Assembly (NCBI GenBank): GCA_013138805.1
Contig: WTCA01000015.1
Span: forward strand, 1-57,273
Direction of reading: 5' to 3'
Origin: an archaeon
Lineage (GTDB): Archaea; EX4484-52; GLR71
Length of the DNA: 57,273 bases
Shown here in pieces: positions 2,432 to 57,159 of the stretch. The notes under the pieces are model-generated. The model was given only the letters and a program-made list of their open reading frames with translations. It was not told the DNA's origin and did no database searches. The translations under genes and the position numbers were made by a program. The number at the start of each line of letters is the position of its first letter. The stretch's first letter is position 1.

Positions 2432-3979
2432 ATGGACGACGCTGAGGACAGGAAGGCAGAGCTGGAACGCATCAAGGATCGCATACTCAGCGTCAAGCCT
2501 TCGGATGAGTACAACATTGAGAGAATAAGACCTGAACAGAAAGCTAAGGCTAAGCCTGAACCAAGACCTGAGACAAAGCCTAAGTCTAAGCCTAAGCCTG
2601 AGACAAAGCCTGAACCTAAGCCTAAGCCTGATACAAAGCATGAACCTAAGCCAAAGCCTAAGCCTAAGCCTGTCAAGTCTAGCATACCTAAAAAGCTGGA
2701 ATCCCTGCATAAGCTGTTGGCAAGCGATGTCAATAAGAAAGTCAAGGCTGAACCCAGACAGGAACCCAGACAGGAACCCATACATGAACCTATACAGGAA
2801 CCTAGACAGGAACCTGAACCTGCACCTGAACATGAACTTGATATTGCCAAGACTATGACTGAGATCGATGCCATTGAGAAAGAGATAGCTGAGCTGACAG
2901 AGAAGATAGATGAGATGATGGCTGGTGCCAAGAGACTTGAATCTGAATTAGAGCCTGAACCCAAACCTGAGCCAGAGCCTGAGCCTGTCAAGTCAGGGGC
3001 ACCTGAAGATCAGGATGACCTGCATAAGCTGGTAGATGGCAAAGATGTTGTCGAGTCAGTCCAGTCTGCCAAAGATATGTTCAATGCAGGTACACTCTAT
3101 GAGCCTGTGCCGGTTGCACAGAGACCTAAGACCGTACCCAATCCTGAATTTATAGATATCATAGATGAGATGAAAGCCCGTGCCAAAGAAGGGGTATCCG
3201 AACCTGAAAATGAGCCTGAACAGGAACATGAGAAGGAACAAGAACCTGAACCTGAACCTGATATCACCAAGGTAGAGGCTGACATTGACACCCTAGAGAA
3301 AGAGATGACCAGCCTGCTAGCTAAGATAGACAGGATGATAGCAGGTGTCAAGAATCCTGAACCTGAACCTGATATCACCAAGGCAGAGGCTGACATCGCT
3401 GAATCCATGTCACAGGCACGCCTGAGACATGAGGTGCCTATATTCATTGCACCTGTGGACATCCCAGTCCTGCCTGAACACCAGAGCGATGCATCCAAGT
3501 TTGTGACAGCCCCTAAAGCTGAGCCTGATAAAAGTATACATAAGGATAGGAGACCTAGGCTTGATGTCAAGGTCAAGATAGTCAACATGATCAGGTATCT
3601 TGGGCGTATCAAGAAGAGAATTATGCCTGATGTCAGGGATCCGTCTGACATGGAAGGGTATGTGGCACCTAACATGTTCAGCGACAATGACCGGTTCGTC
3701 GGTGACGATGCCATGACGGTCAAGACATCGGGTGCTGATGCAGGCAAGGACATCGACAGGAAACTTAGCCCTCAGCCTGAGCAGGTCATACAGCCTAGCC
3801 GTGACATGATGTCGGGCAGGAGAAACTGGCAGGCTTCACAGTCTGGACTGGCAGGTGGTATGATGTCTCATGAAGATTATAAGAAAGTTGTTGATGGTAT
3901 TGATGACGATGATGGTAAGGATGAGGATGGGGAAGAAAATGAAAGCGATAAAAAATATGAGAAAGGATTGAAGGAGTAA
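2432..3979 (+). CDS. large intrinsically disordered KP/EP-repeat protein with three coiled-coil-like segments
   Basis: 515 aa. Contains KPEPKPKP and EPRQ tandem repeats. A segment like IDAIEKEIAELTEKIDEMMAGAK / IDTLEKEMTSLLAKIDRMIAGVK is repeated. The tail is acidic. Confidence 0.75.
   Translation: MDDAEDRKAELERIKDRILSVKPSDEYNIERIRPEQKAKAKPEPRPETKPKSKPKPETKPEPKPKPDTKHEPKPKPKPKPVKSSIPKKLESLHKLLASDVNKKVKAEPRQEPRQEPIHEPIQEPRQEPEPAPEHELDIAKTMTEIDAIEKEIAELTEKIDEMMAGAKRLESELEPEPKPEPEPEPVKSGAPEDQDDLHKLVDGKDVVESVQSAKDMFNAGTLYEPVPVAQRPKTVPNPEFIDIIDEMKARAKEGVSEPENEPEQEHEKEQEPEPEPDITKVEADIDTLEKEMTSLLAKIDRMIAGVKNPEPEPDITKAEADIAESMSQARLRHEVPIFIAPVDIPVLPEHQSDASKFVTAPKAEPDKSIHKDRRPRLDVKVKIVNMIRYLGRIKKRIMPDVRDPSDMEGYVAPNMFSDNDRFVGDDAMTVKTSGADAGKDIDRKLSPQPEQVIQPSRDMMSGRRNWQASQSGLAGGMMSHEDYKKVVDGIDDDDGKDEDGEENESDKKYEKGLKE
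2750..2833 (+). repeat. in-frame 12-nt tandem repeat x7 (GAACCCAGACAG, encoding EPRQ/EPIH/EPIQ)
   Basis: Units counted directly: 2750, 2762, 2774, 2786, 2798, 2810, 2822. Confidence 0.85.
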
Positions 3980-3986
3980 GAGCTAA

Positions 3987-4238
3987 ATGTTGAATACTGA
4001 TGGTCTGTTATTGACGGTGATAGGTATTCTTGTACTAAGTATCATCATCGGATACCTGTTGATGTATTGGCATTATAATAAGCTAGAATCTACGCCTGAC
4101 TGTGATTACTGTGTCCATTGCAGAAAGGATATGATGTGCTCTAAGAAGAATGTCGGGGTGGATCATGTCATTATAAAAGATGTCATTGACAATGGCTGTA
4201 AGGATTATGAGTATAGGAAAGGAGACATGTCAGCATGA
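3987..4238 (+). CDS. small membrane protein with Cys-rich tail
   Basis: 83 aa. N-terminal TM segment LLLTVIGILVLSIIIGYLLMYW, then CDYCVHC. Confidence 0.6.
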   Translation: MLNTDGLLLTVIGILVLSIIIGYLLMYWHYNKLESTPDCDYCVHCRKDMMCSKKNVGVDHVIIKDVIDNGCKDYEYRKGDMSA

Positions 4239-4702
4239 TATCTGATGAAGTCAAGGGAGAGGTCAACGAGCTTCATCGCAGGTTCTGTTTCCATTGCAGG
4301 AAAGATCTGGTGTTTCAGGGATATCAGGTAGGCAGGTTCATAGGCATAGACAAGATAACTGTCATATGTCCTGAGTGTGGCGGGGAGACAGGCTGTTTCA
4401 GGTCTCAGGAAGATATCAATTCCAAGAGAGCGTCTATGCTGGTGTTGGACAGTGACATGGCAAAGGTCAAGAGATTTCCTAGCCTGTATAGAGGTAAGAG
4501 GCAGGATGACTGGAAACGCAGGGTATACGGAATCCCTGACATCAAGAGGGAGACCAAGGATGGGTCTATAATGGATTACAGGCATAAGGGTATGTCTGCT
4601 TTCAAGTGTGGTGGCGGTGATGATGAAGATAGTGGTGCAGGTCTGGACAAAGATCTTGATGACTATGATGATGACGATGACGATGAGAGGGGTGTATGTT
4701 GA
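4235..4702 (+). CDS. zinc-ribbon protein with acidic tail
   Basis: 155 aa. CFHC...CPECGGETGC. C-terminal DDYDDDDDDE. ATGA overlap with the upstream gene. Confidence 0.6.
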   Translation: MISDEVKGEVNELHRRFCFHCRKDLVFQGYQVGRFIGIDKITVICPECGGETGCFRSQEDINSKRASMLVLDSDMAKVKRFPSLYRGKRQDDWKRRVYGIPDIKRETKDGSIMDYRHKGMSAFKCGGGDDEDSGAGLDKDLDDYDDDDDDERGVC

Positions 4703-8382: not shown

Positions 8383-8400
8383 CATGCTATCTTATAAACA
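8383..8400 (+). promoter_or_regulatory. recurrent promoter motif CATGCTATCTTATAAACA (BRE/TATA-like)
   Basis: Exact motif 34 nt upstream of the ATG at 8434. The same 18-mer occurs at 9997 and 12842. Confidence 0.65.
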
Positions 8401-9996: not shown

Positions 9997-10014
9997 CATG
10001 CTATCTTATAAACA
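9997..10014 (+). promoter_or_regulatory. recurrent promoter motif CATGCTATCTTATAAACA
   Basis: Exact 18-mer 34 nt upstream of the ATG at 10048. The promoter, 5' UTR and leader (about 115 bp) are duplicated at 12842-12957. Confidence 0.65.
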
Positions 10015-12841: not shown

Positions 12842-12859
12842 CATGCTATCTTATAAACA
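12842..12859 (+). promoter_or_regulatory. recurrent promoter motif CATGCTATCTTATAAACA
   Basis: Exact 18-mer 34 nt upstream of the ATG at 12893. Confidence 0.65.
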
Positions 12860-24996: not shown

Positions 24997-25014
24997 CATG
25001 CTATCTTATATAGA
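24997..25014 (+). promoter_or_regulatory. recurrent promoter motif variant CATGCTATCTTATATAGA
   Basis: Ends 20 nt upstream of the ATG at 25035. Confidence 0.6.
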
Positions 25015-26754: not shown

Positions 26755-26766
26755 ACTGAGCCATAA

Positions 26767-26780
26767 GCTATCTTATAAAC
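26767..26780 (+). promoter_or_regulatory. recurrent promoter motif variant GCTATCTTATAAAC
   Basis: About 22 nt upstream of the ATG at 26802. This implies a leaderless or near-leaderless mRNA. Confidence 0.55.
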
Positions 26781-27396: not shown

Positions 27397-27717
27397 TTAG
27401 ATGATCTGTAGGACACAGCAATGGCAGTCACACCTGTGCTCTCTCCTGTCACCCTTGAAGCGTCCGACAGGATGCACGGCACCGTGACTGCATGTCCAGC
27501 CTATGCCACCGTCAGGATCATGGGACAGGTCAGATTCCCTGAGTCCGTACATGTGTGCTGTCCTTCTCAGCATGTCTCCTCTGGTCTCTTTGAGTATCCC
27601 CAGATCGACAAGGTCGATGTGCTGTCCTGCCGTATGTCCTGACCTCTTGCAGATGGAGCACCAGTTAGAATTGTCTCTGTCTGATGCCGTGTCTGTCTGG
27701 GCGTACATGATGATCAT
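27397..27717 (-). CDS. Cys/His-rich protein with zinc-knuckle-like motif
   Basis: 106 aa. CSICKRSGHTAGQH (CX2CX4HX4H) and HRCDCHCC. ATGA overlap with the upstream minus-strand gene. Confidence 0.55.
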   Translation of the reverse strand: MIIMYAQTDTASDRDNSNWCSICKRSGHTAGQHIDLVDLGILKETRGDMLRRTAHMYGLRESDLSHDPDGGIGWTCSHGAVHPVGRFKGDRREHRCDCHCCVLQII

Positions 27718-27947
27718 CTCTCAGCTATTCTTGATCTTAATGCTTCTTTGATCGCTGATTTCAGACCTTTTATCCTGAGACTATCTTCATGTAGCACTCT
27801 GTCATTTGTCTTCATGTAACCGTTTAATGATACACAGCTGTCAACAGAGATCAGGTGCAGTAGATCTTCCGCTTCTTCAATTGTTTCCAGCTTGATTATG
27901 ATCGGTACGAACGGTTCAGTCTCTCTTTCAATTCTCATCATTTTCAC
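27714..27947 (-). CDS. hypothetical protein
   Basis: 77 aa ORF in the minus-strand operon. Confidence 0.5.
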   Translation of the reverse strand: MKMMRIERETEPFVPIIIKLETIEEAEDLLHLISVDSCVSLNGYMKTNDRVLHEDSLRIKGLKSAIKEALRSRIAER

Positions 27948-28323
27948 CTGTATTCAATAATTCTGGATTCTTGAACCTGTTTCCTATGATGACATACGCA
28001 TTTTTTGAGACGTAGTGCCATAGGCTGTCATTCCCTAGACAGAACATGCCATACTCTAAAGTGACGACCTTCTTACTTGCATCTTTATGTCCTTCAAATT
28101 GCAGTATGTCACCTACATAGATATCTTTGCCGTCCTTGTCTTGGAGTCCTGTGAACTGTACAAGGTCAACACGTTCTGCAGTGACAAATTCATTACAGTA
28201 TCTATTTTGGATCTCTATGATGAAAGTTGATTTACCATACTCTGTGATATATCTTATGCTGTTTACTCTCTTGAACAGTTTTTCTTTTTTGTCCCATGCC
28301 TTAAATTGTGGGTGTGCTTCCAT
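27928..28323 (-). CDS. YopX-family protein
   Basis: 131 aa. DKDGKDIYVGDIL ... IIGNRFKNPELL is the characteristic YopX pattern. Confidence 0.75.
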   Translation of the reverse strand: MEAHPQFKAWDKKEKLFKRVNSIRYITEYGKSTFIIEIQNRYCNEFVTAERVDLVQFTGLQDKDGKDIYVGDILQFEGHKDASKKVVTLEYGMFCLGNDSLWHYVSKNAYVIIGNRFKNPELLNTGENDEN

Positions 28324-28362
28324 GATATATCATCTATTATCTGATAAAAATTGGAGAGTTGT

Positions 28363-28393
28363 CAGGAACCCCTGAGAAGACTGAGGGTTCCTG
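28363..28393 (-). terminator. 9-bp stem hairpin (CAGGAACCC/GGGTTCCTG) followed by a T-tract on the minus strand
   Basis: Perfect inverted repeat with a 13-nt loop, between the stop of 28471..28950 and the start of the YopX gene. Confidence 0.45.
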
Positions 28394-28470
28394 ATAACTT
28401 GGATCTGTCCACGACATCCCCTTCACAGGATATCAGGTGAACTATGATATGTGATATGTGTGCGACTTCC

Positions 28471-28950
28471 TTATATGTCCTGAAGCCTTCTCATGTACAG
28501 TCCCATCATGCACACTAAGATAGGTATCATGGCGCTGGAGAACTCAGGTATCGCCACATCCTCTTCAGGCTCGCCGTTCGATGACGATGATGACAGGCTG
28601 TATGAACTACCGCCACCGGAGAACGATCCGCATGAGTTGGTCTTGTTGTGCAGGTACAGTATGCATACCTCTCCGTCTGACAGGTCTGGGTCTATGGGAT
28701 TGCTGAGCACGATATATTCATCTGTGTCTGGCTCAGGCTCTGGCTCTGGCTCTGGCTCTGGCATGTCCATCATGCCTTCTATGGCATCTGCAAGGTCAGG
28801 GGTAAGGTCTGAGGCAAGGGCTACTGTGTCATTGTCAGGATCCTGATGCCGGCTCACCATGTTGTTGTCATTGATTATATAGAACAGGGAAAGGGTTATG
28901 CATAGCACTGATACGATCGCTATTGTGATCAGCTTTCCTTTAATCTCCAT
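28471..28950 (-). CDS. membrane/secreted protein with PEF-CTERM-like sorting tail
   Basis: N-terminal TM segment, a (PE)6 repeat and a Ser-rich linker. C-terminus IPEFSSAMIPILVCMMGLYMRRLQDI is a PEF motif, then a TM helix, then RR. Confidence 0.65.
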   Translation of the reverse strand: MEIKGKLITIAIVSVLCITLSLFYIINDNNMVSRHQDPDNDTVALASDLTPDLADAIEGMMDMPEPEPEPEPEPDTDEYIVLSNPIDPDLSDGEVCILYLHNKTNSCGSFSGGGSSYSLSSSSSNGEPEEDVAIPEFSSAMIPILVCMMGLYMRRLQDI

Positions 28951-28965
28951 GTCATCTCATCCTCA

Positions 28966-29544
28966 TCATTGATTTATAGAGATATCTTTAAATCCTTTGT
29001 GTAGCATCTTCAGGTGTGACATGTCTACCACGGCGCCATGCCTGATGAAGACGTCATGAAATCTCTCATAATGATCGCCCCAGTAGATCATGGCACATGC
29101 CATAGGGGCACCCTTCCCTATGTCCTCTCCATCCTCTAAAAATCTTAGGCGGGTGTCAGACAAGAAGCAGACAGCGTTCGCTCTCCCATAGATGCTCCTT
29201 TTCCAATGTCCTGTGTTCGTGGCTACGGGGACAAGCGCCATGACCTCTGAACCGTATTCTTCATGTGCCTGCGCACATCTCTCTAACCATTGCCCTATCG
29301 TCGTCTTTCTCTCTCTGTCTCTTCCGTACGGTGGGTTGACATAGATGTTCAGATAGTTCCAAGACTCTTTCAGCCCATCTTTTTCAGGCAGGGTATATTC
29401 TATGTCGGCGTCGGTGATCGAGTGCTTATTTGAGCAGGGATCTAAGGCTATGTCTGCCCTGAACACTTCTCTGACAGCATCAACATACTTTTTAGGTGTG
29501 CCCCATTCTTTATTCTTTGAGATGACTTCTCTTCCTGCGGTCAT
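28966..29544 (-). CDS. DNA N6-adenine methyltransferase (phage Dam-type)
   Basis: EWGTPKKYVDAVREVF..IALDPCS and the catalytic NPPYG motif. 192 aa. Confidence 0.8.
   Translation of the reverse strand: MTAGREVISKNKEWGTPKKYVDAVREVFRADIALDPCSNKHSITDADIEYTLPEKDGLKESWNYLNIYVNPPYGRDRERKTTIGQWLERCAQAHEEYGSEVMALVPVATNTGHWKRSIYGRANAVCFLSDTRLRFLEDGEDIGKGAPMACAMIYWGDHYERFHDVFIRHGAVVDMSHLKMLHKGFKDISINQ
28977..29015. repeat. 39-bp perfect direct repeat, copy 1
   Basis: TAGAGATATCTTTAAATCCTTTGTGTAGCATCTTCAGGT. Identical to 29567-29605. Encodes LKMLHKGFKDIS at the 3' end of the methyltransferase gene. Confidence 0.95.
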
Positions 29545-29555
29545 CTTTTACCCCA

Positions 29556-29852
29556 TCATAAAATTTTAGAGATATCTTTAAATCCTTTGTGTAGCATCTT
29601 CAGGTATATTCTTAGCATCCTGACAGGCATGTAACGTAGGTCTTTGCACCTTGTCCTGTATCCTGCGATCAGCTCCATGCTATCGCAGGTGACAGGGTTC
29701 CTGAGACGGGCATACAGATTGTCAGTCCACTTTGAGCTGTTGGCACACCTGTTCTGGTATATGCATAGCGGGCACCATCTAGGTCTTTTCAGACCATAGG
29801 TACTGAAATCTGTACTGCTCTTCGTACTGCTCCTGTGCTTGTCTATAGCCAT
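29556..29852 (-). CDS. Cys-rich hypothetical protein
   Basis: 98 aa. The C-terminal 12 codons are identical to those of the Dam gene (39-bp repeat). Confidence 0.55.
   Translation of the reverse strand: MAIDKHRSSTKSSTDFSTYGLKRPRWCPLCIYQNRCANSSKWTDNLYARLRNPVTCDSMELIAGYRTRCKDLRYMPVRMLRIYLKMLHKGFKDISKIL
29567..29605. repeat. 39-bp perfect direct repeat, copy 2
   Basis: Identical to 28977-29015. Confidence 0.95.
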
Positions 29853-29889
29853 GGTCTCATATCATATTTGGTGTCTGTCCTTATTAAAT

Positions 29890-29911
29890 CTTGTACATTC
29901 AGATGTACAAG
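29890..29911. promoter_or_regulatory. operator-like palindrome CTTGTACAT-TCAG-ATGTACAAG
   Basis: Perfect 9-bp arms. Lies in the divergent intergenic region. Confidence 0.6.
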
Positions 29912-29923
29912 ACTATATAAATG

Positions 29924-29945
29924 CTTATACATTATAATGTATAAG
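29924..29945. promoter_or_regulatory. operator-like perfect 22-bp palindrome CTTATACATTATAATGTATAAG
   Basis: Self-complementary over all 22 nt. Related half-site to the palindrome at 29890. TATATAAA lies between the two. Confidence 0.6.
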
Positions 29946-30022
29946 TTTTGACCAAAATATTTATGACTTTACAGTGATAGATACATTTATAAAGGTATAT
30001 GTCCTATATATAATTAATAGGA

Positions 30023-30036
30023 CTTATAAATCCTAT
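30023..30036 (+). promoter_or_regulatory. TATA-like promoter CTTATAAATCCTAT
   Basis: Followed by AAAGGAG (SD) and the ATG at 30049. The TATAAATCCTAT string recurs at 32805-32819. Confidence 0.5.
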
Positions 30037-30048
30037 AAAGGAGATTCG

Positions 30049-41526: not shown

Positions 41527-41688
41527 TGGATTATAAGAGAGCATGGGATACCTTGAAAGCCGAGTCTGGGTACAGGGATACCAAGAGCGGATCTCATATC
41601 AGCGATGTATCTCTCCTAGAGCTGATGGAAGCCATGGAACTGAGGATCAGGCACGAAGATAAACTGAAAAGGACGGATAAGATATGAG
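41527..41688 (+). CDS. hypothetical small protein (53 aa, hand-translated)
   Basis: MDYKRAWDTLKAESGYRDTK.... ATGA overlap with the next gene. Confidence 0.4.
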
Positions 41689-45477: not shown

Positions 45478-45495
45478 TGTTTATAAGGTAGCATC
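45478..45495 (-). promoter_or_regulatory. recurrent promoter motif (minus strand GATGCTACCTTATAAACA)
   Basis: 32 nt upstream of the ATG at 45446. Overlaps the stop codon of 45494..46987. Confidence 0.6.
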
Positions 45496-47018: not shown

Positions 47019-47036
47019 TATTTATAAGATAGCATC
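47019..47036 (-). promoter_or_regulatory. recurrent promoter motif (minus strand GATGCTATCTTATAAATA)
   Basis: 32 nt upstream of the ATG at 46987. Overlaps the stop of 47035..48324. Confidence 0.6.
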
Positions 47037-48356: not shown

Positions 48357-48374
48357 CATTTATAAGGTAGCATC
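48357..48374 (-). promoter_or_regulatory. recurrent promoter motif (minus strand GATGCTACCTTATAAATG)
   Basis: About 33 nt upstream of the ATG at 48324. Immediately downstream of the stop of the 48377 gene. Confidence 0.6.
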
Positions 48375-57143: not shown

Positions 57144-57159
57144 TATATAAGATAACATC
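57144..57159 (-). promoter_or_regulatory. recurrent promoter motif variant (minus strand GATGTTATCTTATATA)
   Basis: About 27 nt upstream of the ATG at 57117, so the mRNA is probably near-leaderless. Heads the six-gene minus-strand operon. Confidence 0.55.

Follow-up and report, generated by a model that had tools for sequence, protein, structure and literature searches.

A Dam-type methyltransferase gene probably captured, with a borrowed C-terminus, at the 3' end of its neighbour on an archaeal virus-like element

The stretch of DNA analysed here (hereafter, the window) is a complete contig of 57,273 nucleotides (the 57-kb contig C37) of a 1.33-Mb archaeal genome bin, and is a virus-like or plasmid-like element. 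On its minus strand, a gene for a Dam-type N6-adenine DNA methyltransferase of 192 amino acids (aa) is situated between a gene for a 98-aa Cys-rich protein and one for a 159-aa membrane protein, and a perfect 39-bp direct repeat is shared by the 3' ends of the Dam gene and the 98-aa gene. We consider it probable, at roughly three chances in four, that this arrangement arose by the moron-like capture of a single orphan methylase gene by the archaeal element, with a 39-bp duplication of the target and the creation of a chimeric C-terminus. The two copies of the repeat would represent the scar of a single gene-insertion event on this virus-like mobile element. The features on which the argument turns are as follows (L016, L017 and L031 being related elements; (-), minus strand):

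28471-28950 (-): 159-aa membrane protein gene, putative ancestral downstream neighbour of the 98-aa gene, with 46% identical homologues in L016 and L031
28966-29544 (-): gene for the Dam-type N6-adenine DNA methyltransferase, 192 aa, orphan, with an apparently chimeric C-terminus (PF05869; PADLOC oMTase)
28977-29015 (-): repeat copy 1, the putative duplicate, now the Dam 3' end, codons ...(H)LKMLHKGFKDIS (exact match; in no Dam homologue)
29567-29605 (-): repeat copy 2, apparently the native 3' end of the 98-aa gene, codons ...(Y)LKMLHKGFKDIS (exact match; homologous DNA at the same place in L016, L017 and L031)
29556-29852 (-): 98-aa Cys-rich gene, first of the leftward operon and putative insertion recipient

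The repeat (TAGAGATATCTTTAAATCCTTTGTGTAGCATCTTCAGGT) is present in exactly two copies, as a preliminary description made from the letters alone had reported; no third copy was found in the window when up to three mismatches were allowed, and the 39-mer was matched in none of 100 dinucleotide-preserving shuffles. Among the exact repeats of at least 20 nt in the window, it is the only long one that joins otherwise unrelated genes, the longer ones being located within paralogous spike genes, leader sequences or tandem arrays. Both copies lie on the minus strand in an identical reading frame. The preliminary description had taken each copy to encode the last 12 residues of its gene: the shared frame and the location at both 3' ends hold, but neither protein finishes with LKMLHKGFKDIS, as three private codons follow in each case (...DISINQ* in Dam and ...DISKIL* in the 98-aa gene), so that Dam (29544-28966) ends in ...DMSHLKMLHKGFKDISINQ and the 98-aa gene (29852-29556) in ...RIYLKMLHKGFKDISKIL. 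Similarly, the two copies are indeed 590 bp apart from start to start, but this unit is not exactly the Dam open reading frame (ORF), being composed of a 22-nt spacer with the ribosome-binding site of Dam and of the Dam ORF, from which the last 11 nt are missing. The edges of the repeat are abrupt, with G versus A past its last base and A versus T ahead of its first. A longer, diverged duplication extending up to the next start codon, ~70% alike by eye, was rejected because it scored at chance level: the similarity in the 22-26 nt past each copy was reached by 1032 of 5000 shuffles (21%), and also by 5-19% of the other gene-upstream regions in the window. The repeat is 39 bp long, and no longer.

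Judged by homology, the 39 bp belong originally to the 98-aa gene, not to Dam, since the relatives of that gene possess homologous DNA and the Dam family does not. The Dam tail (scored as MLHK, HKGF or FKDI) was found in none of the 119 closest proteins (61-77% identity), nor in any of the 80 GTDB loci or nine IMG/VR loci with Dam homologues. The family is conserved through ...GAVVD(I)SHLK and then continues into a tail of its own, approximately (K/G)E(K)IGxxRKxxKLxx. The last invariant column of the family is L178, and most BLAST alignments of Dam cover 93% of the query and end at residue 178-179, which is the edge of the repeat. Furthermore, the DNA of Dam resembles that of the four nearest Dam genes (~70-72%) only as far as Dam nt 524-530, and nt 530 is where the repeat starts.

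The 98-aa protein, for which no Pfam family was found, has three relatives: P0002 in L016 (77% identical), P0003 in L017 (67%) and an uncalled copy in L031/L032 (76%). All three are carried by relatives syntenic with the element, in which its ArdC-like gene, control region and leader-tag genes recur, and in each of them the 98-aa gene has a 3' end homologous to the 39-mer. In L017, the position of the repeat reads ...TACCTGAAGATGCTCCGAAAAAGATTTAAAG... (RYLKMLRKRFK). Alignment scans for further relatives in metagenome, genome and viral contigs returned spurious short matches only, and an exhaustive phmmer search with the 98-aa gene gave two weak partial matches and nothing else. The preliminary description had proposed that the Dam C-terminus is borrowed sequence and had suggested checking whether the native C-terminus of Dam homologues ends before the repeat. 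Both points are borne out by the different tail that the homologues share after SHLK, with the refinement that Leu-Lys at the start of the repeat fits both parents, so that the strictly borrowed residues would be MLHKGFKDIS together with INQ.

The alternative that the shared 12-13 residues constitute a selected C-terminal peptide (a tag for sorting, degradation or partner binding), with the DNA kept identical by gene conversion, is very improbable. It is true that the element uses shared N-terminal peptides on many unrelated proteins and that the two genes are joined to the repeat in frame. However, the tail is not conserved as protein: a 19-nt core, AAAGGATTTAAAGATATCT, is identical in the window, L016 and L031 despite three different reading frames, and the L016 protein leaves the region in another frame (...IAKKDLKIS*) and that of L031 stops inside it (...KRI*). 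The tail is present in no other protein of the window and is of low confidence in the predicted structure of Dam. Moreover, any frame through the 39-mer closes an ORF within at most 15 codons, one by an immediate TGA, one by a TAA after 8 codons and the third being the frame in use, so that an in-frame fusion requires neither selection nor a special explanation. The selected-peptide explanation is thus largely refuted by the changes of frame. The ends of the 98-aa gene by frame are ...KGFKDISKIL* in the window, ...IAKKDLKIS* in L016 (3548-3832) and ...KRI* in L031 (7692-7961); in L017 (10001-10459) homology breaks within the core and the ORF continues to 152 aa.

The related elements also provide what appear to be empty sites, as would be expected if Dam had been inserted into the 3' end of its neighbour with duplication of that end. 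In L016, the 98-aa homologue (3548-3832) is followed after a 22-nt gap by a 166-aa homologue of the 159-aa gene (3855-4355), and in L031/L032 it is followed after a gap of 39 nt by a homologue of the same gene (8001-8474 in L031). Each of these has a single copy of the core and no Dam gene between the two. Relative to this arrangement, Dam in the window amounts to a 551-bp insertion together with a 39-bp duplication, and it lies between genes that are direct neighbours in L016 and L031/L032, as a moron does. The insertion into the neighbour with duplication of its end, as envisaged in the preliminary description, and the existence of related elements that lack Dam, for which it had recommended looking, are thus both supported, the former also by the nativeness of the 39 bp in the 98-aa family.

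The same comparison bears on the order of events, which is unrooted in view of the few elements available. It is conceivable, if rather improbable, that the Dam insertion is old and ancestral to the group and that L016 and L031/L032 lost the gene through recombination between the copies. A deletion of this kind would yield exactly the single-copy arrangement that is observed, and the base composition of Dam is fully adapted to the element. Copies of such age should nevertheless have diverged as the rest of the region has (~78% identity between relatives, i.e. ~22% difference), yet they are identical at 39 of 39 positions, and L017 is also without Dam and, in addition, without the whole cargo block. 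Reversing the polarity leaves the conclusion of a borrowed tail unchanged. That the contig, which stems from a metagenome bin, was misjoined from strain variants at the shared 39-mer is extremely improbable: a 39-bp repeat falls below the usual final k-mer length and well below that of a read, each of the four junctions is a distinct sequence which reads must contain, and both ORFs are intact with proper ribosome-binding sites.

Under the favoured reading of an insertion into the 98-aa gene, the two joins can be placed within a few bases, and the segments concerned are these:

29008-29015 (-): right junction zone, ACCTGAAG on the minus strand, where Dam His-Leu-Lys overlaps Tyr-Leu-Lys of the 98-aa protein (similarity ends at nt 524-530; L178 invariant)
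29016-29566 (-): putatively inserted unique segment of 551 bp, comprising the 22-nt spacer, codons 1-176 of Dam and one further base, the first of codon 177 (missing in L016 and L031/L032)
29545-29566 (-): spacer after copy 2, AAATTTTATGATGGGGTAAAAG, which gives the KIL* end of the 98-aa protein and the GGGG ribosome-binding site of Dam (not significantly similar to the other spacer)
28951-28976 (-): spacer after copy 1, TAAATCAATGATGAGGATGAGATGAC, source of the INQ* end of Dam and of the GAGGA ribosome-binding site in front of the 159-aa gene, to which it is directly joined

The ancestral order, which persists in the related elements, would have been the 98-aa gene followed by the 159-aa membrane protein gene, and Dam would have been joined into the last codons of the former. 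The right join would lie within ACCTGAAG and would have removed the last 13-20 native codons of the methylase and all beyond them, so that Dam now reads through the second copy of the 3' end of its neighbour and stops at what was formerly the neighbour's stop codon. The first eight coding-strand nt of the repeat, AC CTG AAG, are read as (H)LK in Dam and as (Y)LK in the 98-aa gene; His-Leu-Lys is conserved in the closest Dam relatives, and Tyr-Leu-Lys or Tyr-Ile-Lys in the 98-aa family. A crossover inside such a short stretch that fits both parents would be the signature of a microhomology join. The left join would be located just past the first copy, in the 22 nt that follow copy 2, with retention of the Dam start codon; the start (ATGACNGCNGG) and the Shine-Dalgarno-like GGGG are the same as those in Dam relatives. 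As the ancestral 159-aa gene directly adjoins the spacer after copy 1, INQ* is probably the original end of the 98-aa protein and TAAATCAATGATGAGGATGAGATGAC the ancestral flank; conversely, the KIL* end is probably new, and AAATTTTATGATGGGGTAAAAG probably came with Dam or as junction filler. The 39-bp duplication would have resulted from an offset of 39 bp between the two positions in the target to which the ends of the insert were joined. Illegitimate recombination through a template switch or a staggered break may have achieved this, as may the integration, by a single crossover, of a small circle in which the 39-mer was already present. A transposon model was rejected, as the unit holds Dam alone, with no transposase and no terminal inverted repeats.

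Four observations weigh against this account or parts of it. Firstly, Dam has no compositional anomaly: its G+C content (GC) and that of its third codon positions (GC3) are 0.49 and 0.545, compared with 0.45/0.556 and 0.50/0.581 for the two neighbours. Matching composition alongside a perfect repeat implies either a donor of similar composition or an old insertion kept identical by conversion or selection. Secondly, even the best Dam relative is only 77% identical. Thirdly, the Dam relatives use CAT TTA AAA at the join rather than CAC CTG AAG, the microhomology being presumed for the real donor. Finally, a homologue of the restriction enzyme discussed below is found next door in only 11 of the 80 GTDB Dam loci, so that a restriction-modification (R-M) origin rests on the three closest contexts.

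It was also considered that the repeat might be functional. Its conserved portion is:

28980-28998, and 29570-29588 in copy 2 (-): conserved core AAAGGATTTAAAGATATCT, which includes the palindrome AGATATCT and a TATA-like TTTAAAG (unchanged in L016 and L031)

The TTTAAAG is positioned 38-42 nt ahead of the next start codon at all four sites (38 nt for the Dam ATG), the same range as that of the element's own TATA boxes (40-42 nt). On this basis, the 3' end of the 98-aa gene could be a dedicated docking site at the edge of the cargo, where a conserved, partly palindromic and TATA-bearing 39-mer drives the next gene and where single genes come and go as mini-circles by homologous recombination; we regard this as unlikely, but if true it would provide an archaeal-virus analogue of the promoter-early stem-loop (PeSL) system of T4-type phages. 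Stated as a rival, the 39-mer would be a working recombination and expression handle with a promoter composed of a B recognition element (BRE) and a TATA box, genes entering and leaving as circles (590 bp here), and it would be functional as well as a scar; this carries an equally small weight. The topology is that of PeSL-flanked ORFans, with two copies around one ORF and a single copy in a relative, the 19-nt core is preserved across three frames, the TTTAAAG is spaced as the element's TATA boxes are, and the three breakpoints (window, L016/L031 and L017) fall within ~12 nt of the core. Against this, there are only two copies and no dispersed family, with one copy each in L016 and L031, and no stem-loop terminator is present. 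A 19-nt identical run is also unexceptional, as the same alignment contains identical runs of 16-20 nt in plain coding sequence of the gene. When viral and genome contigs were scanned for the core, 79 loci were obtained, all of them chance matches and none with the three genes. Lastly, the 39-mer does not match the promoter motif of the element, ATGCTAYCTTATAWA, which occurs in 10 copies where 0.95 are expected; the proposal of a promoter inside the repeat was set aside once this motif had been found, and is retained only as part of the low-probability rival.

No G+C-rich stem-loop was found in the repeat, only an A/T-rich near-palindrome. This occupies its 3' half (29565-29582 and 28977-28990) around GATATC, TTTAAAGATATCTCTAAA, with 16 of 18 positions symmetric at copy 2, and L016 and L031 have a perfect 10-bp palindrome, AAGATATCTT. 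The near-palindrome is a possible protein-binding site. As the preliminary description had pointed out, recombination between the copies would delete Dam cleanly, as would slippage, and excision is therefore a possibility, though one that is only conjectural; in that event GATATCTCTA would be joined directly to TAAATCAATGATGAGG, with 590 bp skipped.

With regard to the source of Dam, its three closest relatives with gene context (L026/L027, L028 and L029; 71-73% identity) are convergent with a gene of 367-384 aa that overlaps their 3' end:

L026:8574-9728, L028:3037-4191, L029:7282-8385 (-): type II restriction enzyme genes convergent with the Dam relatives (two of three scored with PADLOC)

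The L026 and L029 copies match PADLOC REase_II with E-values of 9e-57 and 2.6e-49, respectively, and none of the three copies has a Pfam match. At the locus in the window no type II R-M pair is formed, as the neighbours of Dam are the 98-aa and 159-aa genes, and no homologue of the relatives' REase_II was found in the genome bin (G000, 92.7% complete). Dam of the window is therefore an orphan. A search of 60 related archaeal genomes yielded no Dam homologue, and the nine IMG/VR contigs with Dam have no other gene in common with the window. In terms of gene context, Dam looks like a captured orphan methylase whose nuclease half was left behind; a cut at codon 179 would drop both the native tail and the region where the relatives carry the nuclease gene.

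The enzyme itself appears to be intact. Dam matches PF05869 with 50.9 bits (cut-off 28.1; E 1.8e-13; residues 11-155) as well as the orphan-methylase model of PADLOC, oMTase. It has NPPYG at residues 70-74 and keeps all 59 invariant columns of a 54-sequence alignment. No solved structures related to Dam by sequence were found. In an AlphaFold2 (AF2) model of Dam, the fold ends with a strand (170-174) and a short helix, and the predicted local distance difference test (pLDDT) score of the tail falls to 49 and then 36 in the last two blocks. The tail of P0005, a relative with the native tail, is likewise low in its AF2 model (58, then 40). The models thus suggest that the tail swap touches a flexible appendage outside the folded catalytic core, and Dam is therefore probably active. 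Most likely, Dam, which is predicted to be expressed from the leftward operon, methylates the DNA of the element as a protection against restriction.

The bin in which the element was found is archaeal, as it has two genes for the TATA-binding protein (TBP) and the matching control genomes are all archaea. The contig carries an ArdC-like gene, YopX, arrays of small genes sharing leaders, iterons and large surface-protein genes, and a phage database search returned nothing similar except for a low-complexity PE-repeat stretch. The leftward unit starts at a divergent control region (29853-30048) and is ordered 98-aa gene, Dam, 159-aa membrane protein gene. Dam and the 159-aa gene, 15 nt apart, are not separated by a terminator. 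Past the latter, a strong hairpin, CAGGAACCCUCAG...CAGGGGUUCCUG, is followed by UUUUU at ~28346-28399 (-), its whole-stretch z-score being only -1.9; hairpin and U-tract are the likely end of the transcription unit. As regards ATGCTAYCTTATAWA, none of 100 shuffles reached 10 copies. Its copies are located at 8384-8398, 9998-10012, 12843-12857, 24998-25012 and 26765-26779 on the plus strand, and at 41530-41544, 45480-45494, 47021-47035, 48359-48373 and 57144-57158 on the minus strand. In the copies checked, its TTATAAA sits 40-42 nt ahead of a start codon, and it probably represents a TATA box joined to an upstream regulator or BRE element.

The segment from the 98-aa gene to the convergent leader-gene array has the appearance of a cargo hotspot (window 27397-29544, L016:3855-7296, L031:8001-11745, L017:10460-10873). 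Its cargo in the window consists of Dam, the 159-aa gene, YopX, a 77-aa gene and a 106-aa gene; that of L016 and L031 consists of the 159-aa homologue, a small Cys/His-rich gene (called in L016 only), a B12-binding radical-SAM gene and a cytidylate-kinase-like gene, and in L017 the hotspot is empty. Only the C-terminal half of the 106-aa gene (27397-27717, -; ...GDRR.HRCDCHCC...) is conserved, as a 59-aa gene (L016:4530-4709), and this half may be a small metal-binding module.

Taken as an insertion, the locus documents with unusual clarity how a single gene was gained by a virus-like element in uncultivated archaea: the two parental sequences of the junction are recognisable, relatives offer empty sites, and each breakpoint is located to within a few bases. 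A methylase of R-M type, deprived of both its nuclease and its own C-terminus, has likely become a gene for self-protection, and the 3' end of the 98-aa gene marks the border of a cargo hotspot at which the three relatives differ. The processes involved (illegitimate recombination, morons and orphan methylases) are well known in phages, and the value of the locus is that of a documented archaeal example rather than of a new mechanism.

Among known systems, the lambdoid phages HK97 and HK022 were reportedly found by Juhala, Hendrix and colleagues to carry morons, i.e. single extra genes between genes that are adjacent in related phages. Classic morons have their own promoter and terminator and often a deviating base composition. 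Dam resembles them in being one accessory gene of unrelated source, probably beneficial, which lies in a variable cargo region between genes that are direct neighbours in relatives. It differs in that its composition matches that of its neighbours (GC 0.49, GC3 0.545) and in that the insertion is inside a coding 3' end, with a 39-bp duplication, a chimeric tail and an archaeal host. As to a promoter and terminator of its own, a TTTAAAG is positioned 38 nt ahead of its ATG but does not fit the promoter motif of the element, and no terminator lies before the 159-aa gene. Transposons, similarly, leave a direct repeat of the target sequence on both sides of the inserted DNA, but their target-site duplications usually measure 2-15 bp, far less than 39 bp, and the unit has neither a transposase nor terminal inverted repeats. 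Orphan Dam-like methyltransferases of phages (PF05869, phage T1 Dam type) counter host restriction. Dam of the window belongs to the same family, has a mobile or viral carrier and is accompanied by no homologue of its relatives' nuclease in the window or the genome; in contrast to the phage enzymes, its closest relatives are halves of type II R-M pairs and its C-terminal 13 residues are foreign.

The remaining comparison is with the PeSL cassettes of T4-type phages (Arbiol et al. 2010, PMC2839356; Comeau et al. 2014, PMC4122927). In one example, ORF192 is situated between two PeSLs in one genome and a single PeSL is present in a relative, and mini-circles were detected (PMC2839356). PeSLs are ~100-bp, many-copy, intergenic elements with proven promoter and terminator (PMC2839356, PMC4122927), whereas the repeat of the window has two copies of 39 bp, in coding sequence and without a stem-loop, any promoter function being putative. 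The likeness consists of direct repeats around a single ORF, a relative with one repeat and no ORF, and a recombination that would excise a small circle. By analogy of arrangement, the PeSL-flanked ORFan cassette is the closest described system of this topology.

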